Assembly (NCBI RefSeq): GCF_013122565.1
Contig: NZ_CP053258.1
DNA: 64,000 bases
Reading direction: 5' to 3' (one strand)
Origin: Escherichia coli
Lineage (GTDB): Bacteria; Pseudomonadota; Gammaproteobacteria; Enterobacterales; Enterobacteriaceae
Below the pieces are notes generated by a model. The model searched no databases and was not told the origin of the DNA. It worked only from the letters and a program-made list of their open reading frames with translations. Every line of letters starts with the position of its first letter. Position 1 is the stretch's first letter. The position numbers were made by a program, and so were the translations under genes. Below, piece after piece: positions 9,187 to 52,794 of the stretch.

Positions 9187-9693
9187 ATGAATAGCATTGA
9201 ACATTATCATGACTGGCTTCGTGACGCACACGCAATGGAGAAACAAGCGGAATCAATGTTGGAGTCTATGGCCAGCAGGATAGAAAACTATCCTGAGTTA
9301 CGTTCCAGAATTGAGCAGCACATTAGCGAAACAAAGAACCAGCTTTCACAGCTTGAAAGCATACTTGATCGTAATAATATTTCTCGCTCTGTCATTAAAG
9401 ACTCTATGAGTAAAATGGCCGCGTTTGGGCAATCTATTGGTGGAATTTTTCCATCTGATGAAATTGTCAAAGGTTCGATCAGTGGCTATGTTTTTGAACA
9501 ATTTGAAATTGCGTGCTACACATCTCTTCTCGCAGCAGCCAAAAATGCGGGTGATACAGCTTCAGTACCAATTATTGAAGCAATTCTTAATGAAGAAAAA
9601 CAAATGGCTGAATGGCTTCTTAACCATATTCCAGACACCACTGAGCAGTTTATGGTCAGATCTGAAATTGATGGCGCTGAAGCAAAAAAATAA
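9187..9693 (+). CDS. yciE: YciE-like DUF892 ferritin-like stress protein
   Basis: 168 aa, MNSIEHYHDWLRDAHAMEKQAESMLESMASRIENYPEL...; tight spacing to flanking genes. Confidence 0.8.
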   Translation: MNSIEHYHDWLRDAHAMEKQAESMLESMASRIENYPELRSRIEQHISETKNQLSQLESILDRNNISRSVIKDSMSKMAAFGQSIGGIFPSDEIVKGSISGYVFEQFEIACYTSLLAAAKNAGDTASVPIIEAILNEEKQMAEWLLNHIPDTTEQFMVRSEIDGAEAKK

Positions 9694-15672: not shown

Positions 15673-16131
<459 letters not shown>

Positions 16132-33423: not shown

Positions 33424-33576
33424 GTTATTAACCTCCTAAAGCCTGGCGATAACACGATAATTTGCAAATCAGATATTTCCAATATCAGCATTTGTTATCA
33501 ATTTATTCTGCGCTAAGGCAACTGCCTGATAAGGTGTTAAAGTTATAAAACCCTTCGCATAAAGGAGTTGTACACC

Positions 33577-34347
33577 GTGCCTGGTTTGAAGATTACGCTT
33601 TTGCAGCAACCACTGGTGTGGATGGATGGTCCTGCCAACCTGCGCCATTTTGATCGTCAACTGGAAGGTATTACCGGGCGCGATGTGATCGTTCTACCGG
33701 AGATGTTTACCAGCGGCTTTGCCATGGAAGCGGCAGCTTCGTCGCTAGCACAAGATGACGTAGTGAACTGGATGACAGCTAAGGCGCAGCAGTGCAATGC
33801 GCTGATTGCAGGCAGTGTTGCATTACAAACGGAGTCTGGTTCGGTTAACCGCTTTTTGCTGGTTGAGCCGGGCGGCACGGTACATTTTTATGATAAGCGT
33901 CATCTGTTCCGCATGGCAGATGAGCATCTACATTATAAAGCGGGCAATGCGCGAGTGATTGTGGAATGGCGCGGCTGGCGTATTTTGCCGTTGGTGTGCT
34001 ACGACTTACGTTTTCCGGTGTGGTCGCGCAATCTCAACGATTATGACCTCGCCATCTACGTTGCCAACTGGCCTGCTCCGCGCTCTCTGCACTGGCAGGC
34101 CTTGCTGACAGCCCGCGCGATTGAGAATCAGGCGTATGTGGCGGGATGCAATCGCGTCGGCAGCGATGGCAACGGCTGCCATTATCGCGGTGACAGCCGG
34201 GTGATTAACCCGCAGGGCGAGATTATCGCTACTGCCGACGCGCATCAGGCAACACGCATTGATGCGGAGCTGTCGATGGTGGCATTGCGGGAATATAGAG
34301 AAAAGTTTCCGGCATGGCGGGATGCGGATGAGTTTAGGTTGTGGTGA
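33577..34347 (+). CDS. yafV: Carbon-nitrogen hydrolase (omega-amidase, nitrilase superfamily) YafV, GTG start
   Basis: 256 aa; E-K-C catalytic triad context (LPEMF..., HYDKRHLF, VCYDLRFP); AAGGAG RBS 9 nt upstream of GTG. Confidence 0.9.
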   Translation: MPGLKITLLQQPLVWMDGPANLRHFDRQLEGITGRDVIVLPEMFTSGFAMEAAASSLAQDDVVNWMTAKAQQCNALIAGSVALQTESGSVNRFLLVEPGGTVHFYDKRHLFRMADEHLHYKAGNARVIVEWRGWRILPLVCYDLRFPVWSRNLNDYDLAIYVANWPAPRSLHWQALLTARAIENQAYVAGCNRVGSDGNGCHYRGDSRVINPQGEIIATADAHQATRIDAELSMVALREYREKFPAWRDADEFRLW

Positions 34348-34449
34348 GTGGGTGTTGTGTTTAAGGCCGGGGAAGACTACGAAAGCCCCTAACTTAAACA
34401 CAATATTACGCCAGAAGTCACCATTTCCAAAACACAGCGCCGCTGTACC

Positions 34450-34683
34450 GTGGGTTATCTGCCCAACCGCAGCGACACGCCGGTGATCAAAATCAGCGCC
34501 AAATGGCTGAGAGAAGCGGGATTTGCGATCGGCACGGGCGTTACCGTGAGGATCTCGGAAGGCTGCCTGATCCTGCTTGCGGATAACAACGAAGTACAGG
34601 AACTGCGCAGGGAACTTTATCAGGTTAAACAGTCAGTTAAGGGGATGCGTGACGGGATGTTTAGTGTGCTGAACGAGAGTTAA
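34450..34683 (+). CDS. SymE-like (AbrB/SpoVT-fold) toxin-family protein, short form (77 aa, GTG start); possibly an N-terminally shortened remnant
   Basis: PVIKISAKWLREAGFAIGTGVTVRISEGCLILLADN resembles the core of K-12 SymE ([34 protein letters not shown], from memory); followed by an imperfect hairpin at 34690-34725. Confidence 0.5.
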   Translation: MGYLPNRSDTPVIKISAKWLREAGFAIGTGVTVRISEGCLILLADNNEVQELRRELYQVKQSVKGMRDGMFSVLNES

Positions 34684-34729
34684 ATAATAAAAAGCCGGGA
34701 AGATTTTATTTCCTACCCGGCTTTTAACA

Positions 34730-35179
34730 TTAATGCTTCAAGGGGAATGACTTCATCAGTAATTCTTCTAAAGAAGAATATAAAAATTCCATTTCATAAG
34801 AGTCATGCAGAAAAACAAATATCTTACCATCTGTATTCATAAGAATAGGGTTTCCGCAGCCATCATCTGAAATAGCATAAAATGAATTCAATATATTTTT
34901 ATCAAGATCTTTATATATTTCCCTAAACTTCAGAGTAAGATCAACTACAGAAGCCTTTCCTACTAAGGAACCATTTTTAAAGGCATGTATAGCTATGCCA
35001 CCAAAGGCCCCACCAAATTTCTTAATAAACTCAATATATTGTATATTGAATTTAATATTTAATATTTTTTCAGCCTGAATGATCTCCTCATCAGAAGCTG
35101 GTATACCATATAGGACCATATCTTGGTCAGATGTTATCTCATCTCTGACTCTTGCTAGCAATTCTTCATTCATACGCAA
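34730..35179 (-). CDS. Predicted immunity protein for orphan toxin 4 (SMI1/KNR4, SUKH-like)
   Basis: 149 aa, AT-rich, directly downstream of an rhs C-terminal toxin module; IQYIEFIKKFGGAFGG motif typical of SUKH immunity proteins. Confidence 0.6.
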   Translation of the reverse strand: MRMNEELLARVRDEITSDQDMVLYGIPASDEEIIQAEKILNIKFNIQYIEFIKKFGGAFGGIAIHAFKNGSLVGKASVVDLTLKFREIYKDLDKNILNSFYAISDDGCGNPILMNTDGKIFVFLHDSYEMEFLYSSLEELLMKSFPLKH

Positions 35180-36297
35180 CCGCCCCCTCTATTGCTTAAA
35201 ACTTTTTCAGCTTGTGATTTCCAGAATTCTTTTTTCCACAGGTTAAATTCTTGACGATTATTTATACCTGAACCTTTTTTATTTCCATTTGGGTGCTGAC
35301 CAGCGTTATTTGTACTTGAACCATGATGTTTATCTGGCATAGCAGTAATTGGCCCTTGTGATTGCTGCCTGTCATGGTGCAATACTATTACATTCCCTTG
35401 CCTATCGCTCGGAGATAAACCAAATGGATGAGGAGCATCATCACTGTTCATAAAAATAATTCTATTAAGCTCGGAATCACTTAAGTGACTTAAATCCGTG
35501 TAACCTGATACATCTAAAGTTAATCCTCTGCTATCAGTAAAAGTAACAGTTAAACCCAGAGGATCGATCCAACTTATTGGATTAGGCGCATATTGGTATA
35601 AGTTTATCCCACCCGCCAGCCCTATCGGGTCCTGACTGATAAACCTCCCGCACTCCGGCGCATAATACCTGAACAGATTGTAATGCAGTCCCGTCTCTTC
35701 ATCATAATACTGCCCCGGCAGCCGCAGCGGTTGCTCAAAGTACGCCCCGCTGTTGCTGATGTCGCCCCGGTTTTCACCAAATCCCGCCTGATAGCCCGCC
35801 CACACCAGCGTCCCGTCCGCCGCGGTCACCTCCTGTACCGTGCCCGTCAGGTCCGTGTGGTAATACCAGATTTTTTGACTCTCTCCGCGCCCGGTGATGG
35901 CGGCCACCGGCGTGTACGGCTGTTCCGCGTCGTACAGGTATGTCCGCTTTCCCTGCCACGTTGTCTCCTGCAACAGCCGGAACCCTTCCCACACAAACGT
36001 TGTCCGGCTTCGTTCTCCCCGGTCGGTATGGAGATTGCTGGTCGCCTTGCTGATGCGCCTGCCCAGCGCATCATACTGATACCGCGTCTCGCTGTTGCTG
36101 CTGATGACCCGCGTTAACTGACCCTGCGCGTTCCACTCCAGCTGTTGGTCCCTGCGCTCTGTCAGTTCGCCCCATTCGTTATAGCGGTAACGGTCACGCC
36201 CGTAGCCCGGCAGGCGGTTATCCGGCACCGCTCCCTGATGCTCATCCGTCAGCAGGTTGCCCGCTTTGTCGTAATAATAATGGTCATGGTCGTACAT
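35170..36297 (-). CDS. Orphan rhs C-terminal toxin module 4: 5'-truncated Rhs core (to DPLGL) plus LHH/HNH-like nuclease-type tip
   Basis: Rhs core homology from about 36345 down to the DPxGL motif, then a divergent ~125-aa tip containing VIVLHHDRQ...KHHG...N...H (HNH/LHH-like). Confidence 0.65.
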   Translation of the reverse strand: MYDHDHYYYDKAGNLLTDEHQGAVPDNRLPGYGRDRYRYNEWGELTERRDQQLEWNAQGQLTRVISSNSETRYQYDALGRRISKATSNLHTDRGERSRTTFVWEGFRLLQETTWQGKRTYLYDAEQPYTPVAAITGRGESQKIWYYHTDLTGTVQEVTAADGTLVWAGYQAGFGENRGDISNSGAYFEQPLRLPGQYYDEETGLHYNLFRYYAPECGRFISQDPIGLAGGINLYQYAPNPISWIDPLGLTVTFTDSRGLTLDVSGYTDLSHLSDSELNRIIFMNSDDAPHPFGLSPSDRQGNVIVLHHDRQQSQGPITAMPDKHHGSSTNNAGQHPNGNKKGSGINNRQEFNLWKKEFWKSQAEKVLSNRGGGCV

Positions 36298-36376
36298 CTG
36301 CCCCGTGCGACTGGTCAGCCAGCCGCTGCGATCATACGCAAAATGCCCCCATCCGCATGCAAGCAGTATTTATCCT

Positions 36377-36682
36377 TTAGGAAAAGAGATTTATAGCTTT
36401 CTCTTGAAGTTCTATACCTATATCCTCAAGTTTGATCAGCTCGTCCTTACTGTACATTCCCTCCCGAAAAGAAAACATTCCATATACATCCATTAGTGCC
36501 AATCCTAAAACTTTTGGAACCATAATTTCATCAGCATATATTTCCGCCAAAAAATCCAGCGCCTTATATAATTCTTCAATTTCATTATCAAAAAAATCTT
36601 TCTTGAGTCTTAATCTAACAGGTATTGAATCATCTCCTAATAATTTATCGACCACTATTTTCAATGCAATCTCTTTATCCAT
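36377..36682 (-). CDS. Predicted immunity protein for orphan toxin 3
   Basis: 101 aa, AT-rich, immediately downstream of orphan module 3. Confidence 0.55.
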   Translation of the reverse strand: MDKEIALKIVVDKLLGDDSIPVRLRLKKDFFDNEIEELYKALDFLAEIYADEIMVPKVLGLALMDVYGMFSFREGMYSKDELIKLEDIGIELQEKAINLFS

Positions 36683-36698
36683 ATATCATTTCCTGTCT

Positions 36699-38315
36699 TT
36701 AACAAGATCTAATAGCATTTGATGGGACATGGCCTTCCACAAGTACTTCTCCAGAACTAACTGCATAGTTACGGGCTGGTCCTTTTAATCCAGCATCCGT
36801 TGCTTTCTCTACCGTGGATAAGTCAATAATATTCCGATTACCTTTAACATCAGGAATAACATCGTCAGTATCAAATGTAACTGTAGTTTGGCCTGGTTCA
36901 CGGTATCGTACTGCTACATATTCATTTACGGTAGTTGAAATGAATTGTGAGCCTTTAAACGAATCATTACTACCATTTCTAACATGACCAGCAGCGCTCA
37001 TTCCTCGCCCCGGGTTCTTTGCAGATAGCCCCTCACTAATAGATTCATCCGCACGAATATTTCGAAATACCTTGATTAAGCCAAGAGGATCAATCCAGCT
37101 AATCGGATTCGGCGCATACCTGTAAAGATTCAGACCGCCACGGATCGAAATCGGATCCTGACTGATAAACCTCCCGCACTCCGGCGCATAATACCTGAAC
37201 AGATTGTAATGCAGCCCCGTCTCTTCATCATAATACTGCCCCGGCAGCCGCAGTGGTTGCTCAAAGTACGCCCCGCTGTTGCTGATGTCGCCCCGGTTTT
37301 CGCCAAATCCCGCCTGGTAGCCCGCCCACACCAGCGTCCCGTCCGGCGCGGTCACCTCCTGTACCGTGCCCGTCAGGTCCGTGTGGTAATACCAGATTTT
37401 TTGACTCTCTCCGCGCCCCGTGATGGCTGCCACCGGCGTGTACGGCTGTTCCGCGTCGTACAGGTATGTCCGCTTCCCCTGCCACGTTGTCTCCTGTAAC
37501 AGCCGGAACCCTTCCCACACAAACGTCGTCTGCCGCTGTTCCCTCTGGTCCGTATGGCGGCCATATGTCGCCTTGCTGATGCGCCTGCCCAGCGCATCAT
37601 ACTGATACCGCGTCTCGCTGTTGCTGCTGATGACCCGCGTTAACTGGCCCTGCGCGTTCCACTCCAGTTGCTGGTCCCTGCGCTCTGTCAGTTCGCCCCA
37701 TTCGTTATAGCGGTAGCGGTCACGCCCGTAGCCCGGCAGGCGGTTATCCGGCACCGCTCCCTGATGCTCATCCGTCAGCAGATTGCCCGCTTTGTCGTAA
37801 TAATAATGGTCATGGTCGTACATCTGACCCGTGCGACTGGTCAGCCAGCCGCTGCGGTCATAGCTGAACACCAGGCAACCGCGCAGTTTGTCATTGATGC
37901 CGCCGACTTCACCGTCTGCGTTCCAGATATAATCCCGCGCTGTCACGCTGTCTTTCTGCGCCGGGGGGTTACCGGCCTGCTGCGGATTCTGGCTGCCGCC
38001 TGGCAGGCTGCGCTGCCAGCTTAACCGGTTATCGGCGTTGTAGCCGCTGAACGTCGCCAGTTTCCCCTGGGTGCGCATCACCTGACGGTGCAGGCTGTCA
38101 CGCTCATATTCACTGACCGTGATACCGTCCAGTGCCGTCTGGAGCAGATGCCCGCTGCCGTAGTAAAGATGGCTGAGATGCTGCCCGTCCGGCAGGGTAA
38201 TGCCGGTGGGATTGCCCAGCGCGTCACGCTGATATTTTATGCTGCCGTGCACGCTGTGCTCTGCCGTCAGCCAGCCGCTGCGGTCATACGCAAAACGCAC
38301 CGTGTCCGCCTGCAA
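36699..38315 (-). CDS. Orphan rhs C-terminal toxin module 3: 5'-truncated Rhs core plus unique ~125-aa tip (possible ADP-ribosyltransferase-like R/STT motifs)
   Basis: Starts inside the rhs core ([17 protein letters not shown]...), ends DPLGL + IKVFRNIRADESISEGL...GSQFISTTVNEY.... Confidence 0.65.
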   Translation of the reverse strand: MQADTVRFAYDRSGWLTAEHSVHGSIKYQRDALGNPTGITLPDGQHLSHLYYGSGHLLQTALDGITVSEYERDSLHRQVMRTQGKLATFSGYNADNRLSWQRSLPGGSQNPQQAGNPPAQKDSVTARDYIWNADGEVGGINDKLRGCLVFSYDRSGWLTSRTGQMYDHDHYYYDKAGNLLTDEHQGAVPDNRLPGYGRDRYRYNEWGELTERRDQQLEWNAQGQLTRVISSNSETRYQYDALGRRISKATYGRHTDQREQRQTTFVWEGFRLLQETTWQGKRTYLYDAEQPYTPVAAITGRGESQKIWYYHTDLTGTVQEVTAPDGTLVWAGYQAGFGENRGDISNSGAYFEQPLRLPGQYYDEETGLHYNLFRYYAPECGRFISQDPISIRGGLNLYRYAPNPISWIDPLGLIKVFRNIRADESISEGLSAKNPGRGMSAAGHVRNGSNDSFKGSQFISTTVNEYVAVRYREPGQTTVTFDTDDVIPDVKGNRNIIDLSTVEKATDAGLKGPARNYAVSSGEVLVEGHVPSNAIRSC

Positions 38316-38488
38316 CTAGCTGTTCAGATGGTGAATTTAACTACACCTTCTGGTTATCACCGTATTCAAGTGCCGCGATGCAACTACTGGGAAACTACAC
38401 TCATTCTCTTATTATTTTTAGAAATTTTCATCTATTAAATAATACACATGACCGATATTATTTAACCCTGCTGGGTATAACTGAAAAA

Positions 38489-39340
38489 TTATTTATTTTT
38501 AATTAAATTCATTAAATCCCAAACATTGCTATCATAATGATTGAAACCTTGAATCACAAGATAAGACAATGCTTTCATATCCAACAAAAATCTGATTTTC
38601 CCGTCTATAATTTTTGTATTTTCCGTTATAAACAATCGTTCCAATTTAACAAGATTACTTATTTTAGCTACGCTTGGAATATCACCCATTTTTGAAAAAG
38701 ATATTTTTTTAATTGAAGGTAATTTACTTACATCTTCAATGATTGACACTGCCATTTTTTTGCATAAAGATAAAGACACTTCTTCTATATTTTTCAAACC
38801 ATCTAAAAAAGTCGTGTCCGAAGCCTTAGATAATCCAGATAACTTGATGCTCCTTAAAGTCTTGATAGATGATAAATTAGGGATTGTTTGAATATTGCTA
38901 TTTTTTATCTCTAATGATTGCAAGAATGATCTCCCCGCAACATGCTCTTTTTTTTCTTTAAAATCTATCAATGTTATTTTTTCCAGAGTTCTGTGATTAA
39001 ACAAATTATCAATTCCATTTCGACCTATTAATACAGCCTCTTTTAAAAATGGGAAATATGATAAATCAAGTCTCATTTTATCATCATTCAAAAGATGGAT
39101 GAGTTGTATTTTTTTCAACGAATACAGTTGTGATATATCCTTTATTTTATTGCCTGTGATATATATTTCATTAATGAAATTAATTTCATCAAGAAATGAT
39201 AAATCAGTTATAAGCGGTGACAAAACCAACCCGTTAACTTTCTTTTCCTTCATCGTGTCAACAATATGACTTGTATCGTCATGCTTTTCATACACAAGGA
39301 CACGACTTCCCCGTACACCATAATTTTCCACTAGTCTCAT
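38489..39340 (-). CDS. Leucine-rich-repeat protein (283 aa), positioned as the immunity gene of orphan toxin 2
   Basis: AT-rich; repeated L..L..L.L..N.I LRR-like units (LSFLDEINFINEIYITGNKIKDISQLYSLKKIQLIHLLND..., IQTIPNLSSIKTLRSIKLSGL); 20 bp downstream of orphan module 2. Confidence 0.55.
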   Translation of the reverse strand: MRLVENYGVRGSRVLVYEKHDDTSHIVDTMKEKKVNGLVLSPLITDLSFLDEINFINEIYITGNKIKDISQLYSLKKIQLIHLLNDDKMRLDLSYFPFLKEAVLIGRNGIDNLFNHRTLEKITLIDFKEKKEHVAGRSFLQSLEIKNSNIQTIPNLSSIKTLRSIKLSGLSKASDTTFLDGLKNIEEVSLSLCKKMAVSIIEDVSKLPSIKKISFSKMGDIPSVAKISNLVKLERLFITENTKIIDGKIRFLLDMKALSYLVIQGFNHYDSNVWDLMNLIKNK

Positions 39341-39359
39341 ATATTTCCCCTTAAATAAA

Positions 39360-40820
39360 TCAACACTCCCCCTTCACTCTAAAATCTTGATCTGAAACAT
39401 TTCCTGTATTTGGTGGTCGTTTTTCATTACTGGTTACTCCTCTTCCTCCATTTTTAGCTATTTTCATTGCCTCTAAATTATTTAGCCATTGTTTACTAAT
39501 TCCAGCATATTTATCAAAATTCAACGAATCCAACATTGCCTGAGTTAACTTTCCACTTCGGGCATGTTGCAACATTCTCTGATATAGATTTTTTGTTTGA
39601 CCTGCATACATTTTACCCGCACCTTCATCAAAAAACTCATAAATTGCTTGCCCTTTATATTTTGCAGTAACATCTCTTATTTGTTCTAAAAAATCACTAG
39701 CGAGTCTTACTAATCCCCAAGGATCAATCCACCTCAGCGGATTCGGCGCATACCTGTAAAGATTCAGCCCACCCCGGATCGAAATCGGGTCCTGGCTTAT
39801 GAACCTTCCGCACTCCGGCGCATAATACCTGAACAGATTGTAATGCAGCCCCGTCTCTTCATCATAATACTGCCCCGGCAGCCGCAGCGGTTGCTCAAAG
39901 TACGCCCCGCTGTTGCTGATGTCGCCCCGATTTTCTCCAAATCCCGCCTGGTAGCCCGCCCACACCAGCCTCCCGTCCGGCGCGGTCACCTCCTGTACCG
40001 TGCCCGTCAGGTCCGTGTGGTAATACCAGATTTTTTGACTCTCTCCGCGCCCGGTGATGGCCGCCACTGGCGTGTACGGCTGTTCCGCGTCGTACAGGTA
40101 TGTCCGCTTTCCCTGCCACGTTGTCTCCTGCAACAGCCGGAACCCTTCCCACACAAACGTCGTCCGCCGCTGTTCCCTCTGGACCGTATGGCGGCCATAT
40201 GTCGCCTTGCTGATGCGCCTGCCCAGCGCATCATACTGATACCGCGTCTCGCTGTTGCTGCTGATGACCCGCGTTAACTGGCCCTGCGCGTTCCACTCCA
40301 GTTGCTGGTCCCTGCGCTCTGTCAGTTCGCCCCATTCGTTATAGCGGTAACGGTCACGCCCGTAGCCCGGCAGGCGGTTATCCATCACCGCGCTCTGATA
40401 CTCGTCCGTCAGCAGATTGCCCGCTTTGTCGTAATAATAATGGTCATGGTCGTACATCTGCCCCGTGCGGCTGGTCAGCCAGCCGCTGCGGTCATACGCA
40501 AAGCGCACCGTGTCCGCCTGCATGTGGTGCAGCCGTTCCCCTTCTTTCGTCGGGGTGAGCGTCACTTCCGTTATCTGGTCAAGACGGTTGTAGCTGAAGG
40601 TCCGTGTACTGTGCTGCGTGTCACTGCGCAACAGGCGGCCCAGCGCATCACGCTCCTGCCGCTCATTACGCCCCCCGCCTTCTGTACCCTGCGTCTGGAT
40701 GATGACCGGATACCCGCCCGCATTCAGCGCCAAATGGCTGAGAGAAGCGGGATTTGAGATCGGCACGGGCGTTACCGTGAAGATCTCGGAGGGATGTCTG
40801 ATCCTGCTTGCGGATAACAA
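39360..40820 (-). CDS. Orphan rhs C-terminal toxin module 2: 5'-truncated Rhs core with an internal deletion, plus GIY-YIG nuclease-like tip
   Basis: Core homology starts at ...[14 protein letters not shown] (40727); lacks ~130 codons between the two YDRSGWLT repeats; after DPWGL the tip reads AIYEFFDEGAGKMYAGQTKNLYQRMLQH (GIY...YIG...R...H pattern). Confidence 0.65.
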   Translation of the reverse strand: MLSASRIRHPSEIFTVTPVPISNPASLSHLALNAGGYPVIIQTQGTEGGGRNERQERDALGRLLRSDTQHSTRTFSYNRLDQITEVTLTPTKEGERLHHMQADTVRFAYDRSGWLTSRTGQMYDHDHYYYDKAGNLLTDEYQSAVMDNRLPGYGRDRYRYNEWGELTERRDQQLEWNAQGQLTRVISSNSETRYQYDALGRRISKATYGRHTVQREQRRTTFVWEGFRLLQETTWQGKRTYLYDAEQPYTPVAAITGRGESQKIWYYHTDLTGTVQEVTAPDGRLVWAGYQAGFGENRGDISNSGAYFEQPLRLPGQYYDEETGLHYNLFRYYAPECGRFISQDPISIRGGLNLYRYAPNPLRWIDPWGLVRLASDFLEQIRDVTAKYKGQAIYEFFDEGAGKMYAGQTKNLYQRMLQHARSGKLTQAMLDSLNFDKYAGISKQWLNNLEAMKIAKNGGRGVTSNEKRPPNTGNVSDQDFRVKGEC

Positions 40821-40914
40821 CGAAGTACAGGAACTGCGCAGGGAGCTTTATCAGGTTAAACAGGCAGTTAAGGGGATGCGGGACGGGATGTTTAGTGTGC
40901 TGAACGAAAGTTAA
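40728..40914 (+). pseudogene. SymE-like gene, 5'-truncated copy (3' ~190 bp plus hairpin duplicated from 34497-34725)
   Basis: ...SAKWLREAGFEIGTGVTVKISEGCLILLADNNEVQELRRELYQVKQAVKGMRDGMFSVLNES nearly identical to the 34450 copy; upstream part of the track ORF is antisense rhs sequence; perfect hairpin at 40923-40955. Confidence 0.55.
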
Positions 40915-40975
40915 ATAATAAAAAAGCCGGGAAGGTAAATAAGCTTCCCGGCTTTCCACAACAATTTTAACTTAA

Positions 40976-41464
40976 TTAATCATAAGCATCGCCGTAATTT
41001 TCATATTTCCAATAAATATATTTACCACCTGAGCTATATAATTTATGCAATAATTCTGTAAAAGTCATTGCAATAATTGGACAACTACCTACAACGCCAT
41101 GTATCTCATAATTGCTATCATAACAGCGTCCATTTCTTTCTGTAGAAAAATCAATGGATAAATAATCATTATTATCGGTCCTGCAAATTAAGTACCATGA
41201 AGATGATATATCATCCTCACATGGCTCACCAACTATAAATTTATTTGCCTGTAATATTTCATTATTTTTCAAAATAGTGAAGGAGATTTCCTGCTCTTCA
41301 GAGCAAAACAATTTTATTCCATTACATATTTTGTAAAAACGAACAACATCATCAGGATATTTTAAATAATCAGATGGTAATAAAGGCAAATTACCATCTG
41401 GTGGAATAACTTCACATCTGTTATCATTTTTTATCAAGTCAAGTAATTCATCAATGCCATTCAT
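40976..41464 (-). CDS. Predicted immunity protein for orphan toxin 1
   Basis: 162 aa, AT-rich, immediately downstream of orphan module 1. Confidence 0.55.
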   Translation of the reverse strand: MNGIDELLDLIKNDNRCEVIPPDGNLPLLPSDYLKYPDDVVRFYKICNGIKLFCSEEQEISFTILKNNEILQANKFIVGEPCEDDISSSWYLICRTDNNDYLSIDFSTERNGRCYDSNYEIHGVVGSCPIIAMTFTELLHKLYSSGGKYIYWKYENYGDAYD

Positions 41465-41473
41465 ATTACCACC

Positions 41474-43312
41474 TTAAAAAATAACAGTATCAAACTTCCC
41501 AGAGTATATAAACTGGTTCAATGCCCGGTAATATGCTTCCCTACTGGCAACAGGAACATTTGCGGCATCAAACATTCGTTCAGTAAGATCTTTCATTTCT
41601 CTGCTACTTACTGTTGTCCAATCCACTTTCCCACCAACTCTTCTTCCGGTTTTCTGCTCTAACCAATCTCTATATACTTTTTTTGTTGCAGCATGATTAG
41701 CCTCGGATAATGCAATTGTTGGTGACTTTGAAGGATATTTCCCTCCATAAGATGGCACATTCTTAGACATCCAAATATCAAGCACACCATGATGGTTTTC
41801 TAAAGAGGAATTAATTGGTCGATAAGGAACAACATCAAACTCTTTAACTTCACCGCACTTAAGTCCAAGGGGATCTATCCACCCCAGCGGATTCGGCGCA
41901 TAAGCATACTGGTTCAGCCCACCCGCCAGCCCTATCGGGTCCTGGCTTACGAACCGCCCGCACTCCGGCGCATAATACCTGAACAGATTATAGTGCAGCC
42001 CCGTCTCTTCATCATAATACTGCCCCGGCAGCCGCAGCGGCTGTTCAAAGTACGCCCCGCTGTTGCTGATATCGCCCCGGTTTTCGCCAAATCCCGCCTG
42101 GTAGCCCGCCCACACCAGCGTCCCGTCCGCCGCGGTCACCTCCTGTACCGTGCCCGTCAGGTCCGTGTGGTAATACCAGATTTTTTGACTCTCTCCGCGC
42201 CCCGTGATGGCGGCCACCGGCGTGTACGGCTGTTCCGCGTCGTACAGGTATGTCCGCTTTCCCTGCCACGTTGTCTCCTGCAACAGCCGGAACCCTTCCC
42301 ACACAAACGTTGTCCGGCTTCGTTCTCCCCGGTCCGTATGGCGGCCATATGTCGCCTTGCTGATGCGCCTGCCCAGCGCATCATACTGATACCGCGTCTC
42401 GCTGTTGCTGCTGATGACCCGCGTTAACTGGCCCTGCGCGTTCCACTCCAGCTGCTGGTCCCTGCGCTCTGTCAGTTCGCCCCATTCGTTATAGCGGTAG
42501 CGGTCACGCCCGTAGCCCGGCAGGCGGTTATCCATCACCGCTCCCTGATATTCATCCGTCAGCAGGTTGCCCGCTTTATCGTAATAATAATGGTCATGGT
42601 CATACATCTGCCCCGTGCGGCTGGTCAGCCAGCCGCTGCGGTCATAGCTGAACACCAGGCAACCGCGCAGTTTGTCATTGATGCCGCCGACTTCACCGTC
42701 TGCGTTCCAGATATAGTCCCGCGCTGTCACGCTGTCGCTGTGTGACGGGGGTGTGGCTGTCTGCTGTGGGTTCTGGCTGCCGCCTGGCAGGCTGCGCTGC
42801 CAGCTTAACCGGTTGTCGGCGTTGTAGCCGCTGAACGTCGCCAGTTTCCCCTGGGTGCGCATCACCTGACGGTGCAGACTGTCACGCTCATATTCACTGA
42901 CCGTGATACCGTCCAGTGCCGTCTGGAGCAGATGTCCGCTGCCGTAGTAAAGATGGCTGAGGTGCTGCCCGTTCGGTAACGTGATGTCGGTGGGATTGCC
43001 CAGCGCGTCACGCTGATATTTTATGCTGCCGTGCACGCTGTGCTCTGCCGTCAGCCACCCGCTGCGGTCATACGCAAAGCGCACCGTGTCCGCCTGCATG
43101 TGGTGCAGCCGTTCCCCTTCTTTCGTCGGGGTGAGCGTCACTTCCGTTATCTGGTCAAGACGGTTGTAGCTGAAGGTCCGTGTACTGTGCTGCGTGTCAC
43201 TGCGCAACAGGCGGCCCAGCGCATCACGCTCCTGTCGCTCATTACGCACCCCGCCTTCTGTACCCTGCGTCTGGATGATGACCGGATACCCGCCCGCATT
43301 CAGCACAAACAT
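41474..43312 (-). CDS. Orphan rhs C-terminal toxin module 1: 5'-truncated Rhs core (~1.6 kb retained, homology up to ~43468) plus unique ~130-aa tip
   Basis: Core identical in register to the main rhs from ...[12 protein letters not shown] to DPLGL; tip KCGEVKEFDVVPYRPINSSLENHHGVLDIWMSK... (possible xHH nuclease-like motif, weak). Confidence 0.65.
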   Translation of the reverse strand: MFVLNAGGYPVIIQTQGTEGGVRNERQERDALGRLLRSDTQHSTRTFSYNRLDQITEVTLTPTKEGERLHHMQADTVRFAYDRSGWLTAEHSVHGSIKYQRDALGNPTDITLPNGQHLSHLYYGSGHLLQTALDGITVSEYERDSLHRQVMRTQGKLATFSGYNADNRLSWQRSLPGGSQNPQQTATPPSHSDSVTARDYIWNADGEVGGINDKLRGCLVFSYDRSGWLTSRTGQMYDHDHYYYDKAGNLLTDEYQGAVMDNRLPGYGRDRYRYNEWGELTERRDQQLEWNAQGQLTRVISSNSETRYQYDALGRRISKATYGRHTDRGERSRTTFVWEGFRLLQETTWQGKRTYLYDAEQPYTPVAAITGRGESQKIWYYHTDLTGTVQEVTAADGTLVWAGYQAGFGENRGDISNSGAYFEQPLRLPGQYYDEETGLHYNLFRYYAPECGRFVSQDPIGLAGGLNQYAYAPNPLGWIDPLGLKCGEVKEFDVVPYRPINSSLENHHGVLDIWMSKNVPSYGGKYPSKSPTIALSEANHAATKKVYRDWLEQKTGRRVGGKVDWTTVSSREMKDLTERMFDAANVPVASREAYYRALNQFIYSGKFDTVIF

Positions 43313-43517: not shown

Positions 43518-48474
<4,957 letters not shown>

Positions 48475-48497: not shown

Positions 48498-50711
48498 TTA
48501 TTCAGAAACGTCCGGGGTAGGTAACGGGGCAATATCATCCGCAGTCATGGCTGTGCCGCCATCCGGATTCATATCAATGCCACTGCCAATGAGTTGCATA
48601 ACATCGCTGGTGTGCAGTAAAAGTTGTTTTCCGCAAAACTCAATCGAGCCATCCTTGTGTAATACAAGCGCTGCATTGCCGCAACGAAGGGTAAATTGAT
48701 CGCCAACATCCAGACGATATGTCGTTCCGACATTGATGGTTTGAGCCAGTTTGACGGAAAGACCATCATTTTTTGTGATGGTGGCATTACGGTCTTCTCC
48801 CACGCTGATGGTTTCATTTTTGACAATGGTTTTTATGCGATCGACCATGACCGTGTGGGTTTCATTGTTTTTTACCGTGGTATTGAGGTCTTTTTCCGCA
48901 TGGAACTTCACCTCTTCTGCCCCCGTTTTATCGTCAAAGCGCAGCATGTTTCCGTTGGTCGGCCCGCCATACAGCGAGTGGCTGAATATCCCGCTCTGCG
49001 AGGCCATACCCGGCAGTCCCCACGGCGGCATGGTGTCCTGGTTATAGGTGCGCCCTACAATGATCGGTAAATCCGGGTCGCCGTTTTTGAAATCCACCAG
49101 CACTTCCTGACCGATGCGCGGGATCTGGATCATGCCGAATCCTTTCCCTGCCCACGGATAGCTGACGCGGATCCAGCAGGAGCTGTTTTCGTCATTATTA
49201 CCGTAACGATCCCAGCCAAACTGCACCTTCACCCGTCCATATTTGTCCGTCCAGATTTCCTGCCCCGCCGGGCCGGTGACGATGGCGCTCTGCGGGCCTT
49301 TGGTGTGGGGTTTGCTCAGGGTTCGCTGTGGGCGGTAAACTTCGCTGGTTGGGTGCAGTTCAAACGTGGTGACATAGGTAAAATGCTGATCCTGGCCGCT
49401 GTGCTGCGCATTGTCCCGTAAAAACAGCGTGGTCTGTACCAGCAGGTATTCCTGATTAATTTCTGCCGTCGGGTGATTCATCAATGTAAAGGTGTACCCG
49501 GTCATGAGGGTACGGATATGACCGGCCCCATGTGCCCGGCTGCCTGGGCTACGCTGCGCTTCCATACGAATACGCGTCAACATCTCGCCTTCGCCCGTAG
49601 TGAAGTAATCACCAGGCCATTCGTAATGCTCGTATTCAGCATGACCGGTATCACGCGGACTGGCCACGGTACTTTTAAGCAGCGAACGAGGCTTCATAAA
49701 ATCAAAATCGTCCATCACCCACTTTCCAGTACGCAGCCTCTCACTGGCCGTAATGGTGTGAATAAATTCCTTATCCAGTTTCAGCCCTTCCTGGTGCCAC
49801 TCCACCAGTGGCGAGTCAGGGCACGCTTTATGACCATTGATGGCATCCGCCAGCACCAGCGTGTGGCTGTTCTCGCTGTGCTCAAACCACCAGTAAATTC
49901 CCCACTCCTGCATCAGGCGCTGGATGAAATCAAAATCCGTTTCACCGTACTGTACCTGCCAGGCACGAGGTGGATAATTTTCCACCAGCCGTTTTTCCAC
50001 CGGAAAGGAATATTCATCCAGTACTTCATCGAGAATATCCACCACGGTTTTATTCTGGAACGCTTTGTAGTCGCTGGTGTGGGTCAGCAGTTTCAGCCAC
50101 GGTTCAATGCGTAATTCATACGTTACCGAGCGGCCCTCATGGCCCACCACCCGCGCCGCTGTCACCAGCCCGCTGATATGCCGTTTGCCGCCGCCGTCCA
50201 GTTCGATATTGACGCACAGATCTTTGCCCACCATGGGCTGAAGCGGCAGGTTAGCAGCGGGGGAAACGTACCCCAGGTTCAGGGCGTCCGGCGTTTTAAG
50301 CTGTACTGTGTAGGAAAACAGATTCCCAAGCCCTTCCGAACCATTCATGCCTGCAAACAAAAGCATCTGCGGCGGCACCGCACTACCACTTACTGTGACG
50401 TTATGCGCCCCCGGACCACCTGCAGCAAGCGACGCCGCCGCATCCTGAACTGCACCAGCCATATCCGATATCCCTGCTGCGGCGGCTGCGGCTTGCGCAG
50501 CAGCTACTGCGGCTTTAACCAGACCTGACGGTTCCGGCAACGCACCAAACAGGTCCGCCGCTGCCTGTTCTACCATCTGCTCGGCTGCATCAGCTACATC
50601 GGTTGCGGCTGAACCAGGGCTTATACCACCACTTTCGCCAGCTATTGGTGGTGTGGTGATGACGGGTCCACCGTTTCCAACTGGTTTATTACCCGTAGAT
50701 ACAAAACTCAT
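48498..50711 (-). CDS. vgrG: T6SS spike protein VgrG (737 aa as the longest ORF, includes a ~100-aa Ala/Gly-rich N-terminal extension; true start uncertain)
   Basis: gp27/gp5-like VgrG body ([25 protein letters not shown]..., C-terminal ...[19 protein letters not shown]...); N-terminal [22 protein letters not shown]...[10 protein letters not shown] segment precedes the conserved start of the VgrG fold. Confidence 0.85.
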
Positions 50712-51820: not shown

Positions 51821-52032
51821 TTTACTCTCATTAAATAATAATTATTTGTATCGAAAATATTATTTTATATATTACGAGTATTGCCCCTTCAGCCGCAGCG
51901 CATCCACATACCGTCCTTCACTGCAGGGCAAGATTACGAAAGCCCGCCCCCCGCAAGGACTGACGCGAGGTAGTTTCTGTCCATGGCTGCTTTTCTCATC
52001 TTACGTCTTAACCCTGCCTTGGTTTCGCCGTA

Positions 52033-52794
52033 CTACACCTGCCAGGCGCGGGGGGGATAATTTTCCACCAGCCGTTTTTCCACCGGAAAGGAATATTCAT
52101 CCAGTACTTCATCGAGAATATCCACCACGGTTTTATTCTGGAATGCTTTGTAGTCGCTGGTATGGGTCAGCAGCTTCAGCCATGGCTCAATGCGTAATTC
52201 ATACGTTACCGAACGGCCCTCATGGCCGACCACCCTCGCCGCCGTCACCAGCCCGCTGATATACCGTTTTCCGCCACCGTCCAGTTCAATGTTGACGCAC
52301 AGGTCTTTGCCCACCATGGGCTGAAGCGGCAGGTTAGCAGCGGGGGAAACGTACCCCAGGTTCAGGGCGTCCGGCGTTTTAAGCTGTACTGTGTAGGAAA
52401 ACAGATTCCCAAGCCCTTCCGAACCATTCATGCCTGCAAACAAAAGCAGCTGCGGCGGCACCGCACTACCACTTACTGTGACGTTATGCGCCCCCGGTCC
52501 ACCGGCAGCAATCGACGCCGCCGCATCCTGAACTGCACCAGCCATATCCGATATCCCTGCTGCGGCGGCTGCGGCTTGCGCAGCAGCTACTGCGGCTTTA
52601 ACCAGACCTGACGGTTCCGGCAACGCACCAAACAGGTCCGCCGCTGCCTGTTCTACCATCTGCTCGGCTGCATCAGCGACATCGGTTGCGGCTGAACCAG
52701 GGCTTATACCACCACTTTCGCCAGCTATTGGTGGTGTGGTGATGACGGGTCCACCGTTTCCAACTGGTTTATTACCCGTAGATACAAAACTCAT
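52033..52794 (-). pseudogene. vgrG: vgrG 5' fragment (N-terminal ~255 codons duplicated; body replaced)
   Basis: Near-identical to the first ~780 bp of vgrG at 49935-50711, including the Ala-rich N-terminal segment; homology breaks near 52017-52036. Confidence 0.75.

Follow-up and report, generated by a model that had tools for sequence, protein, structure and literature searches.

Two SymE-family sequences, probably decayed remnants, beside the toxin modules of an Escherichia coli rhs array

The 64-kb window analysed here, that is, the whole stretch of Escherichia coli DNA under study, contains two SymE-like sequences, copy 1 and copy 2, on the strand opposite an rhs array. Both are probably decayed remnants of the SymE family, neither a working toxin gene nor a regulator of the array. 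We propose that the window retains only the symE ends of two module blocks. Illegitimate recombination at the 5-bp microhomology TCAGC would have fused copy 2 to an internal point of an rhs core, residue ~769, which gave orphan module 2 its 5' end. The copies mark a real recombination scar, in a SymE-Rhs pairing that is itself already known in several enterobacteria.

Results

The array and the two copies

The ORF list and the self-comparison of the window place the main rhs gene of the T6SS-1 array at 43871..48010 on the minus strand, with VgrG and a DcrB-like gene upstream; it is the reference for the core homologies of the orphans. By orphan rhs module we mean a 5'-truncated rhs core that runs to the conserved DPxGL motif and is followed first by a variable C-terminal domain and then by a small ORF. 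Module 2 (39360..40728, minus strand) has this structure: blastn and tblastn find core residues 769-856 and 988-1258, with an in-frame internal core deletion of 426 bp, then a C-terminal toxin domain. Its identity with main rhs is 90-99% over 44257-45043 and 45447-45701; unique sequence and ORF 38489-39340 come next. Two other modules on the minus strand border the SymE-like copies. The putative immunity gene of module 1 (40976..41464) lies directly after the toxin end of that module and is followed by copy 2 and a hairpin; the terminal module 4 (34730..36361), made of an rhs core stub, a C-terminal toxin domain and the immunity ORF 34730-35179, is convergent to copy 1.

Copy 1 occupies 34393..34683 on the plus strand, adjoining yafV, and corresponds to codons 2-97 of intact 97-aa homologues; its frame is open from 34393, and the 96-aa translation has no internal stops. 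Annotation pipelines call it as 34450-34683, 77 aa with a GTG start; this is the SymE-like ORF that the initial annotation had pointed out, and it is indeed present on the plus strand. RefSeq lists it as a gene. Copy 2 (40724..40914, plus strand) is a 3' fragment that holds residues 36-97 and the stop: the first 35 codons are gone, and tblastn aligns query residues 35-96.

The self-comparison aligns 34493-34734 with 40724-40965, ungapped, with 89% matches. The repeat proper covers 34493-34725 and recurs at 40724-40955: the claim that some 230 bp of the 3' end are duplicated, hairpin included, survives re-alignment, with the second occurrence starting at 40724, not 40728. The coding part (34493-34683) is 95% identical: 9 of 191 positions differ, six differences being synonymous and three non-synonymous, for a dS of 0.16 and a dN/dS of 0.13, an estimate made from nine differences only. 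The similarity of the copies is well above chance, with blastn E-values of 1e-71 or better against relatives.

A strong bidirectional terminator hairpin follows each copy. The first (34690..34725), between copy 1 and the convergent immunity ORF of module 4, has predicted RNA folds of -16.9 kcal/mol on the plus strand (z -4.6) and -19.3 kcal/mol on the minus strand (z -5.1), with a U-run after the stem on the latter. The second (GCCGGGAAG-loop-CTTCCCGGC, 40923..40955), between copy 2 and the immunity ORF of module 1, folds at -21.4 kcal/mol (plus, z -6.1) and -21.1 kcal/mol (minus, z -4.7); its motif has a single occurrence in the window, where 0 are expected. The stems are conserved between the two copies and the loops differ.

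The copies had also been described as antisense to the rhs array. They do lie on the opposite strand, but they converge on the toxin and immunity ORFs without overlapping them. Overlaps at copy 2 come only from ORFs that span the joint: the plus-strand ORF 40618-40914, which begins in antisense rhs sequence and crosses the joint, and the minus-strand ORF of orphan 2 (39360-40820), whose open frame reaches a TTG at 40820 and extends 97 nt into antisense symE.

On membership of the SymE family, the comparisons with Pfam, NCBIfam and K-12 SymE agree with the initial annotation for both sequences. The frame of copy 1 matches Pfam SymE_toxin PF08845 with E=1.3e-14 over model positions 1-52 of 54, and copy 2 retains about the last 60% of that domain stretch. 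Against NCBIfam SymE NF010128, copy 1 scores 47.8 bits (E=1e-12) and copy 2 scores 34.7 bits (E=1e-8); copy 1 and K-12 SymE are 44% identical over 68 residues. Orthology of either copy to K-12 SymE was rejected, both scores being below the curated equivalog cutoff of 132 bits: judged by sequence, the copies are paralogues of it. K-12 SymE/SymR (yjiW) consists of an SOS-induced SymE protein and a cis-antisense RNA; the current RefSeq name of the protein is nucleoid-associated protein. The AbrB/MazE-like swapped-hairpin fold of the family has been assigned in the literature by profile methods only (PMC1891008). A sequence search found no solved structure among the relatives, and the AlphaFold2 monomer model of the intact 97-aa homologue has a pLDDT of 47.

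Intact symE units in other genomes

The intact gene is the last of a repeated unit: a XerC-like tyrosine recombinase, a DnaG-type primase, an RstR-like HTH repressor, and SymE. The cargo of the unit, convergent to symE, is a short pre-toxin stub, a C-terminal toxin domain and an immunity gene, of Rhs or CDI type, with a bidirectional terminator hairpin between cargo and symE. E. coli D6 has tandem 6.6-kb units, whose 5.9-kb backbones are 98.9% identical and whose cargo is unrelated; Budvicia (L050) has tandem recombinase-primase-HTH-SymE units with CdiI-linked cargo. Both carry a unit of the PhRepA kind. The window does not: recombinase, primase and HTH genes are absent from its 64 kb, and tblastn with the D6 proteins returns the two symE pieces only. 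Because these three genes have left no trace in the window, the descent of its copies from such a unit can only be inferred.

Other rhs loci do have SymE-like flanks, as a search among 50 Enterobacterales loci established: an Rhs C-terminal end lies convergent within 1.7 kb of symE in 22 of them, and 13 have at least two symE copies. Many of the array-embedded copies carry stops, frameshifts or 5' truncations. Arrays that have no backbone keep a non-coding linker of ~180 nt, seemingly more conserved than symE, and the hairpin GCCGGRAAGAT-loop-ATCTTYCCGGC is conserved across genera in Rhs-linked copies only. The short orphan stubs of six genera all begin at the same nucleotide, GAYCCGATAGGGCT, a sequence that encodes DPIGL, and three 21-bp stubs of Budvicia are 76% alike (16/21 positions).

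It is possible, though we hold it tentatively, that the unit is a dedicated vehicle delivering toxin-immunity cassettes into rhs and cdiA genes in an integron-like manner, and that SymE remnants are its footprints. The site of recombination would be the edge of the conserved pre-toxin motif; the resident gene would receive the new toxin domain as a fusion, and its former domain and immunity gene would end up downstream as an orphan. If true, polymorphic toxins would have an acquisition system comparable to integrons. Several observations hint at it: the start nucleotide shared by the stubs; the 16/21 agreement in Budvicia, which would require an exchange in the first 5 nt or at the stub edge and which RecA-type recombination explains poorly; the near-identical D6 backbones with unrelated cargo; the restriction of the conserved hairpin to Rhs-linked copies; and the retention of the linker.

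Copy 1 and the absence of a start signal

In four intact copies of E. coli D6, the start signal is GAGG-N9-ATG. Aligned with them, copy 1 has an 18-nt gap that removes GAGG...ATG, and the yafV-linked symE copies of E105 and HCP5S3 have the same gap. Over its 3' part, copy 1 agrees at 189/191 positions with a D6 allele that is intact and element-borne, with 2 non-synonymous and 0 synonymous changes, and at 179-181/191 with its positional counterparts. The translation of copy 2 is identical to an intact D6 allele over 62 aa; its nucleotides are ~94% identical to the allele that copy 1 matches. Neither copy combines a ribosome-binding site, a start codon and a complete domain. Since its frame is open, copy 1 might conceivably be translated from the GTG at 34450 or from a non-canonical start.

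The surroundings were scanned for control elements. No sigma-70-like promoter was found on either strand in 34200-34800 or 40500-41100, no LexA box (CTGT-N8-ACAG, one mismatch allowed) near 34300-34460 or 40600-40730, and no match to SymR in an Rfam scan at E<=1. The SOS association of K-12 symE, initially extended to the window copies, does not carry over to them, since a LexA box is lacking. Nor does either copy form a SymE/SymR type I toxin-antitoxin pair: the scan gives no SymR match, copy 1 has an altered 5' end and copy 2 has none.

The minus strand at 34420..34730, antisense to copy 1, shows homology to the Shigella sRNA Ssr1 over ~45% of that RNA, at its 3' end. Rfam RF02627, a 654-nt model with a gathering score of 820 bits, matches it with 276.9 bits (E=7e-80) at model positions ~380-654; a second, weaker match lies at 40674-41138 on the same strand (159.8 bits, E=2e-44). 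Both scores fall short of this threshold, since the matches are partial and take in only the 3' ~275 positions of the model; neither stretch is a full Ssr1. Matches to isrA (RF01385), also on the rhs strand, are weak: they score 26 and 38 bits, where the gathering score is 51. Both RNA families are distinct from SymR. In Shigella flexneri, Ssr1 has been detected experimentally as an RNA that maps between the Rhs gene SF0268 and a hypothetical gene, SF0269 (PMC4782007). In Salmonella, the expression of IsrA is inverse to that of STM0294.1n, the gene it overlaps (PMC2330248). Since both copies have sequence homologous to part of Ssr1 on their opposite strand, antisense transcription across such symE remnants is plausible in a related locus; with the antisense RNAs Ssr1 and IsrA reported at homologous loci, the remnants may conceivably have a role at the RNA level.

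One could then view copy 1 as a working SymE-type toxin or nucleoid-binding gene, checked by a cis-antisense RNA in the manner of a type I toxin-antitoxin system, and stabilising the end of the rhs island. The open frame, the largely kept Pfam domain and the RefSeq annotation are consistent with this, as are the Ssr1 homology of the opposite strand, the inverse expression seen in Salmonella, and the sRNA control that Kawano et al. proposed for SymE genes without a neighbouring repressor (PMC1891008). However, the Shine-Dalgarno sequence and the ATG are deleted, a start at GTG-21 would fall inside the first predicted beta-strand, and the scans returned no promoter-like site, LexA box or symR match, with Ssr1 and isrA below their gathering scores. 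The only changes with respect to the intact D6 allele in the 3' part are non-synonymous, and the equivalent of copy 2 in strain PapRG-06-5 already contains a stop codon. A working copy 1 is thus unlikely.

The TCAGC joint

The homology of orphan module 2 to main rhs reaches 40728 (= main rhs 45701), and the symE homology of copy 2 starts at 40724: the TCAGC at 40724..40728 is common to both. These limits, together with an alignment of the junction that took in main rhs, orphan 1, copy 1 and the E105 and PapRG joints, uphold the initial annotation in its reading of copy 2 as fused to an rhs core fragment at TCAGC. The overlap is flanked by imperfect matches (A.TCAGC.C.AA).

Among 5,426 complete E. 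coli genomes, three (PE164, E105 and PapRG-06-5) have the same joint, again at the yafV locus, with 98-100% coverage of a 140-nt probe. Its presence in at least three other strains means that it was inherited or transferred, and not formed in this genome. The modules that flank it there differ from those of the window, and E105 does not have the 426-bp core deletion of orphan 2. The window block 34493-36336 is 97.8% identical to a block of PapRG-06-5 that is annotated as an HNH/EndoVII nuclease and an SMI1/KNR4 protein, and that lies next to a truncated symE. Independent deletion-type scars exist: in APEC 102026 symE is joined to rhs at another of its positions, and in an Erwinia MAG a primase fragment abuts a truncated symE. 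No pre-joint state was found in the E. coli collection, and module 1, the neighbour of copy 2, is absent from all 5,426 genomes.

Of the two options first proposed for the copies, a recombination scar and antisense regulation of the toxin modules, the scar is the better one, given the identical joint in three other genomes with other toxin modules beside it. Antisense regulation finds neither promoter, LexA box nor SymR; copy 1 has lost its Shine-Dalgarno sequence and ATG, copy 2 its 5' end, and a hairpin stands between each copy and the immunity gene.

The joint might also be the trace of an in-place tandem duplication, in which a single unequal exchange, mediated by microhomology and involving residue ~769 of the rhs core and codon 35 of symE, duplicated a block made of core, toxin domain, immunity gene, hairpin and symE 3' end, the toxin domains being later replaced homologously. 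The topology is as predicted, with the downstream breakpoint joined to the upstream one, and the core repeats of the array, 88-99% identical, promote unequal exchange. Against this, the nine coding differences bear a signature of purifying selection, the hairpin loops differ, the D6 allele that copy 1 matches at 189/191 positions is more distant from copy 2, and the modules on the two sides of the joint have nothing in common beyond the core; later gene conversion could nevertheless mask a duplication. We regard this scenario as improbable. The dS and dN/dS values make it probable that the copies arrived separately, with distinct module blocks, and were not duplicated recently in place; they would descend from two different functional alleles. 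The event that formed the joint could be a deletion, or a homology-facilitated illegitimate recombination of incoming DNA; it cannot be reconstructed, because the orphan cores of the window are long (0.8-1.6 kb), unlike the 84-nt stubs of the recombinase-primase-HTH-SymE units.

That the remnants act in cis on the array, by antisense transcription into immunity or orphan genes or through a promoter in antisense symE driving an orphan module, is very improbable: the orphan 2 frame does start inside copy 2, the upstream hairpin should stop read-through from the main operon, so that orphans 2-4 need their own promoter, and the Ssr1/isrA homology is on the rhs strand, but both strands are devoid of sigma-70-like promoters in the intervals scanned, the hairpin blocks sense transcription from symE, copy 2 has no 5' region at all, and the isrA matches are weak.

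Discussion

Under the preferred reading, that of decayed remnants, deletions of the element backbone or of a potentially toxic gene could enter symE from its 5' side. They would stop at the hairpin, beyond which the neighbouring immunity gene would be lost, hence the persistence of 3' fragments. The remnants probably serve now only as DNA: the hairpin may insulate the modules transcriptionally, and flanking homology for swaps of toxin-immunity modules may come from the conserved 3' end of symE together with the rhs core.

Comparison with known systems

Orphan rhs toxin-immunity modules and C-terminal displacement are reportedly treated by Jackson et al. 2009, Poole et al. 2011 and Koskiniemi et al. 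2014; in the window, too, a full-length rhs is followed by 5'-truncated core fragments, each carrying its own toxin domain and immunity gene. To our knowledge, these accounts give SymE sequences no place in the module architecture. K-12 SymE belongs to the same Pfam family, PF08845, and is a small protein with a conserved GxWL.EAGF...V.V....G.(I/L) core; unlike K-12 symE, the window copies have no LexA box, SymR match or restriction-system neighbours, and they either lack a start signal or are truncated. Ssr1 also maps beside an Rhs-family gene, but its 5' part, and hence its reported start site, is absent from the window, and its position antisense to a SymE-like frame goes unmentioned in the paper that describes it (PMC4782007).

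The association of SymE with RHS and haemagglutinin genes was described by Kawano, Aravind and Storz in 2007, sometimes with two copies and with a linked Cro/cI-type HTH and primase-helicase (PMC1891008). Their neighbourhoods comprise cHTH-SymE operons, Prim-Hel, haemagglutinin and RHS genes and an optional second SymE, and their Fig. 7A already draws the intact repeated unit (PMC1891008); E. coli D6, Budvicia and the 22/50 enterobacterial loci confirm the association. They treat the genes as toxin-antitoxin modules on mobile islands, and their account is without truncated copies, convergent placement after immunity genes, or rhs-core joints (PMC1891008). PhRepA of Photorhabdus luminescens (Zamora-Lagos et al. 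2018) has a core of primase, integrase, Cro/C1 HTH and SymE-like genes, occurs in tandem copies, and includes a variable 'adhesion' part that holds truncated remnants of toxins (PMC6267812). Its link is to haemagglutinin-type (CdiA-like) proteins, whereas in the window the SymE end alone is present, is linked to Rhs, and lacks the primase, integrase and HTH genes; the units of E. coli D6 and Budvicia share with PhRepA both the gene set and the tandem habit.

The locus and its rhs array

The window is assigned to E. coli on the basis of its fadE-ivy segment, which is 98.3% identical to many genomes of the species, and the region discussed here closes the T6SS-1 island on its yafV side. There, yafV (33568-34347, plus strand) borders the array, and the full-length main rhs gene (43871-48010) lies on the minus strand after a VgrG gene and then a DcrB-like gene. 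Downstream of it are four orphan modules, whose core fragments begin at residues 714, 769, 836 and 988 of the main Rhs protein; each carries a toxin domain, with a small ORF after it. Scanned against NCBIfam, the toxin domains and immunity ORFs gave nothing useful except weak matches: to leucine-rich repeats for the ORF after orphan 2 (38489-39340, minus strand), at 283 amino acids unusually long for an immunity gene, and to a GIY-YIG-type endonuclease (E=3e-4) for the toxin domain of orphan 2 (39360-39749, minus strand).

Orphans 3 and 4 start at one main-rhs coordinate, 45495 (window 36361 and 38314), which suggests a single truncation event or the duplication of one unit. Orphans 2 and 4 have in common an in-frame deletion of 426 bp (142 codons) in the rhs core, flanked by 23-bp direct repeats (window sites 40474-40496 and 36314-36336; main rhs 45021-45043 and 45447-45469); the main rhs and orphans 1 and 3 have both repeats intact. 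A second, partial copy of vgrG, comprising its first 268 residues at 95% identity (51991-52794, minus strand), lies upstream of the complete gene (48498-50711).

Two copies of symE and a joint

The initial annotation described a SymE-like ORF at 34450-34683, a duplicate of its 3' part including the hairpin, and a fusion of that duplicate to an rhs fragment, all of which hold. The ORF is in the ORF list, its frame is open back to 34393, and it matches SymE by profile (Pfam PF08845, E=1.3e-14; NCBIfam SymE, E=1e-12). This first copy is 44% identical to K-12 SymE across 68 residues, and since its NCBIfam score, 47.8 bits, is far under the equivalog cutoff of 132 bits, we regard it as a paralogue, not SymE proper. 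On re-alignment, segment 34493-34725 recurs at 40724-40955: the two copies differ at 9 of 191 coding positions, and the stems of the hairpin are conserved between them, its loops not. The second copy is fused to the rhs core of orphan 2 at a TCAGC microhomology. Homology between orphan 2 and the main rhs ends at 40728 (main rhs 45701), and symE homology starts at 40724: the joint is thus a 5-bp overlap.

Neither copy appears functional. Intact relatives, such as the four copies of E. coli D6, have 97-109 amino acids, start with MAEHDITPEV and are preceded by a GAGG Shine-Dalgarno sequence. In the first copy, an 18-nt gap takes out exactly the Shine-Dalgarno sequence and the ATG, as it does in the copies linked to yafV in strains E105 and HCP5S3, and the 77-residue ORF annotated by the pipeline uses an internal GTG start (codon 21) that has no ribosome-binding site. 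The second copy starts within codon 35. A sigma-70 scan found no promoter-like site at either copy, no LexA box lies near them, and neither matches SymR in an Rfam scan. Directly after the yafV stop is an 11-bp inverted repeat, TTGTGTTTAAG...CTTAAACACAA (34353-34405; -24 kcal/mol, z -3.5), whose right arm forms the first codons of the start-less frame, where the Shine-Dalgarno sequence and ATG are missing.

After each copy comes a strong hairpin, well folded on either strand (z -4.6 to -6.1) and with a U-run after the stem on the rhs strand: it is a bidirectional terminator, separating symE from the convergent immunity ORF. The hairpins were assessed by folding because their loops exceed the 8-nt limit of the promoter/terminator tool, which missed both as terminators. 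An AlphaFold2 model of an intact homologue had a pLDDT of 47, too low for fold comparison, and a sequence search of the PDB found no relative. Public E. coli annotations already call such remnants "SymE family" genes. K-12 symE (2000-2412 of its comparison locus) is now a "nucleoid-associated protein SymE" in RefSeq, not an endoribonuclease, so the "toxin" label of the family is in flux.

Antisense regulation of the toxin modules by the symE copies, one of two readings initially offered for their orientation, is unsupported: the copies are on the opposite strand but do not overlap the modules, and sense transcription of symE would end before reaching them since the bidirectional terminator lies between symE and the immunity ORF. 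The rhs strand opposite the first copy aligns with the 3' ~275 positions of the Rfam family Ssr1 (E=7e-80), and that opposite the second copy does so more weakly; because the match is partial, both alignments stay under the gathering score. Ssr1 is an RNA of Shigella flexneri known from northern blot and 5' RACE; it maps between a gene of the Rhs family and a hypothetical gene, and its authors make no remark on a SymE-like frame on the opposite strand (PMC4782007). Matches to isrA are weak (26 and 38 bits); Salmonella IsrA overlaps the gene STM0294.1n, and the two are inversely expressed (PMC2330248). These likenesses are leads for RNA-level activity at such remnants, and do not count as evidence for regulation of the array by the copies in the window.

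The joint in other strains and its origin

The other initial reading, a recombination scar, was right, and the scar is common to further E. coli strains. Of 5,426 complete E. coli genomes, three (PE164, E105, PapRG-06-5) match a 140-nt probe spanning the joint, always at the same yafV locus; the modules around the joint vary from strain to strain. In E105 the core after the joint is uninterrupted, in contrast to the 426-bp deletion in orphan 2 of the window; in PapRG the window's terminal module (34493-36336, 97.8% identical) is directly beside the truncated symE. With the locus constant and the modules variable, the joint is a scar that was inherited or transferred, with exchange of toxin-immunity modules around it. 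APEC 102026 and similar genomes have a second joint, apparently widespread among APEC genomes, at another symE position (equivalent to window 34457): a 5'-truncated symE meets a different rhs core family (5984/5985 of its locus), with a full gene for a 109-residue SymE 5 kb away in the same array. Since this joint is independent, truncation of symE against rhs sequence is recurrent.

Between the two copies there are six synonymous and three conservative non-synonymous changes (dS 0.16, dN/dS 0.13). In its 62 encoded residues the second copy does not differ from an intact D6 allele, and the 3' part of the first is identical at 189 of 191 positions to another intact D6 allele, and at 179-181 of 191 to its positional counterparts. 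These comparisons fit better with two functional alleles having been brought in with separate blocks than with a recent duplication in place, although later gene conversion may have masked one.

The joint might have formed by a deletion from codon 35 of symE into a downstream rhs core, or with incoming DNA, by homology-facilitated illegitimate recombination. The 64-kb window holds no remnant of recombinase, primase or HTH genes, and the adjoining toxin-immunity module of orphan 1 (40976-41860) has no match in the 5,426 genomes; the pre-joint state, that module followed by an intact symE, was not found there. Deletions coming in from the side of these backbone genes would have removed the 5' end of symE and would stop at the hairpin, since going further loses the immunity gene, which is under selection; this limit may explain why 3' ends of symE persist.

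Both copies are ordinary: pseudogene remnants with an inherited illegitimate-recombination joint, not to be counted, like other symE remnants of this sort, as functional toxin-antitoxin systems. Their value is as markers. They show that blocks of an rhs array were put together out of pieces that had been acquired separately, and that modules end in a conserved terminator hairpin and a symE 3' end.

SymE and Rhs across Enterobacterales

For each species, a single genome was scanned with a SymE-like profile and then searched by tblastn with Rhs. The C-terminal end of an Rhs gene is found on the opposite strand, at most 1.7 kb from the symE stop, in 22 of 50 Enterobacterales loci, a span with space for one immunity gene; 13 of the 50 have at least two symE copies. 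At several loci rhs stubs stand between successive symE copies, of which Providencia stuartii has four and Kosakonia three, and many array-embedded copies have stops, frameshifts or lost 5' ends. In an Erwinia MAG, an internal primase fragment adjoins a truncated symE: this is a deletion scar with the backbone still visible.

The short stubs of D6 and of five other genera all start at one nucleotide, GAYCCGATAGGGCT (encoding DPIGL). Conservation of the hairpin GCCGGRAAGAT-loop-ATCTTYCCGGC between genera is confined to Rhs-linked copies; the hairpin may be a recombinase site, though its conservation with compensatory changes fits a terminator equally well. In backbone-less rhs arrays of four genera, a non-coding linker of ~180 nt without ATG replaces symE codons 1-11, contains TTCATACGCTACCGCCACACCCTGATAAA, extends to the next rhs stub and looks more conserved than symE itself. 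It lies just upstream of symE in comparison loci L008 (880-1040), L009 (9870-10000 and 11090-11250), L018, L022, L047 and L055. This conserved "type-B" linker has no blastn homology to the D6 backbone, and the idea that it is a backbone end was dropped.

Intact units and known systems

In E. coli D6 the SymE-like genes are the last of a 6.6-kb unit: a XerC-like recombinase (NF002331, 533 bits), a 910-residue protein whose N-terminal part is a DnaG-type primase, an RstR-like HTH protein and SymE. The cargo, convergent to symE, consists of an 84-nt stub of the rhs core, then a toxin domain, then an immunity gene. Two such units stand in tandem between the rhsC array and ybgA (L005 1-14070, L007 1-10200; L006 is a second rhs locus), their 5.9-kb backbones 98.9% identical and their cargoes unrelated, with stub and hairpin bounding the variable part. 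A divergent 109-residue SymE allele lies at the ybgA edge of the locus.

The recombinase-primase-HTH-SymE unit is also tandem in Budvicia diplopodorum (locus L050), where the adjoining downstream module has a CdiI immunity gene. A 21-bp pre-toxin stub, encoding AAKG[TA]TA, is present at every boundary of the 6,456-bp unit (2948-2968, 9404-9424, 15860-15880). The stubs are only 76% alike, and the middle site combines the element's flank with an upstream-type stub, so the exchange falls in the first 5 nt or else at the stub's edge.

Through the copies in the window, the rhs arrays of E. coli are tied to a unit that occurs with CDI toxins as well. There are hints, short of proof, in the stub boundary, in the Budvicia sites and in the units with exchanged cargo that this unit is a vehicle loading toxin cassettes onto rhs and cdiA genes; if so, it would give a mechanistic explanation of how polymorphic toxin loci diversify and orphan arrays grow.

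The association of SymE with Rhs has been in the literature since 2007, and symE in CDI or Rhs clusters is mentioned in passing for Proteus, Erwinia and Pantoea. The vehicle idea is less explored. In the literature searched, no paper was found that explicitly describes orphan toxin cassettes being carried by primase-recombinase units. The unit is not a Gamma-Mobile-Trio island, which has two recombinases and a StbA-like protein, without primase or SymE. Its setting was drawn in 2007 by Kawano, Aravind and Storz as a neighbourhood with cHTH-SymE, Prim-Hel, haemagglutinin and RHS genes and an optional second SymE (PMC1891008), and the "PhRepA" repeat of Photorhabdus (PMC6267812) is the same unit as in D6 and Budvicia.
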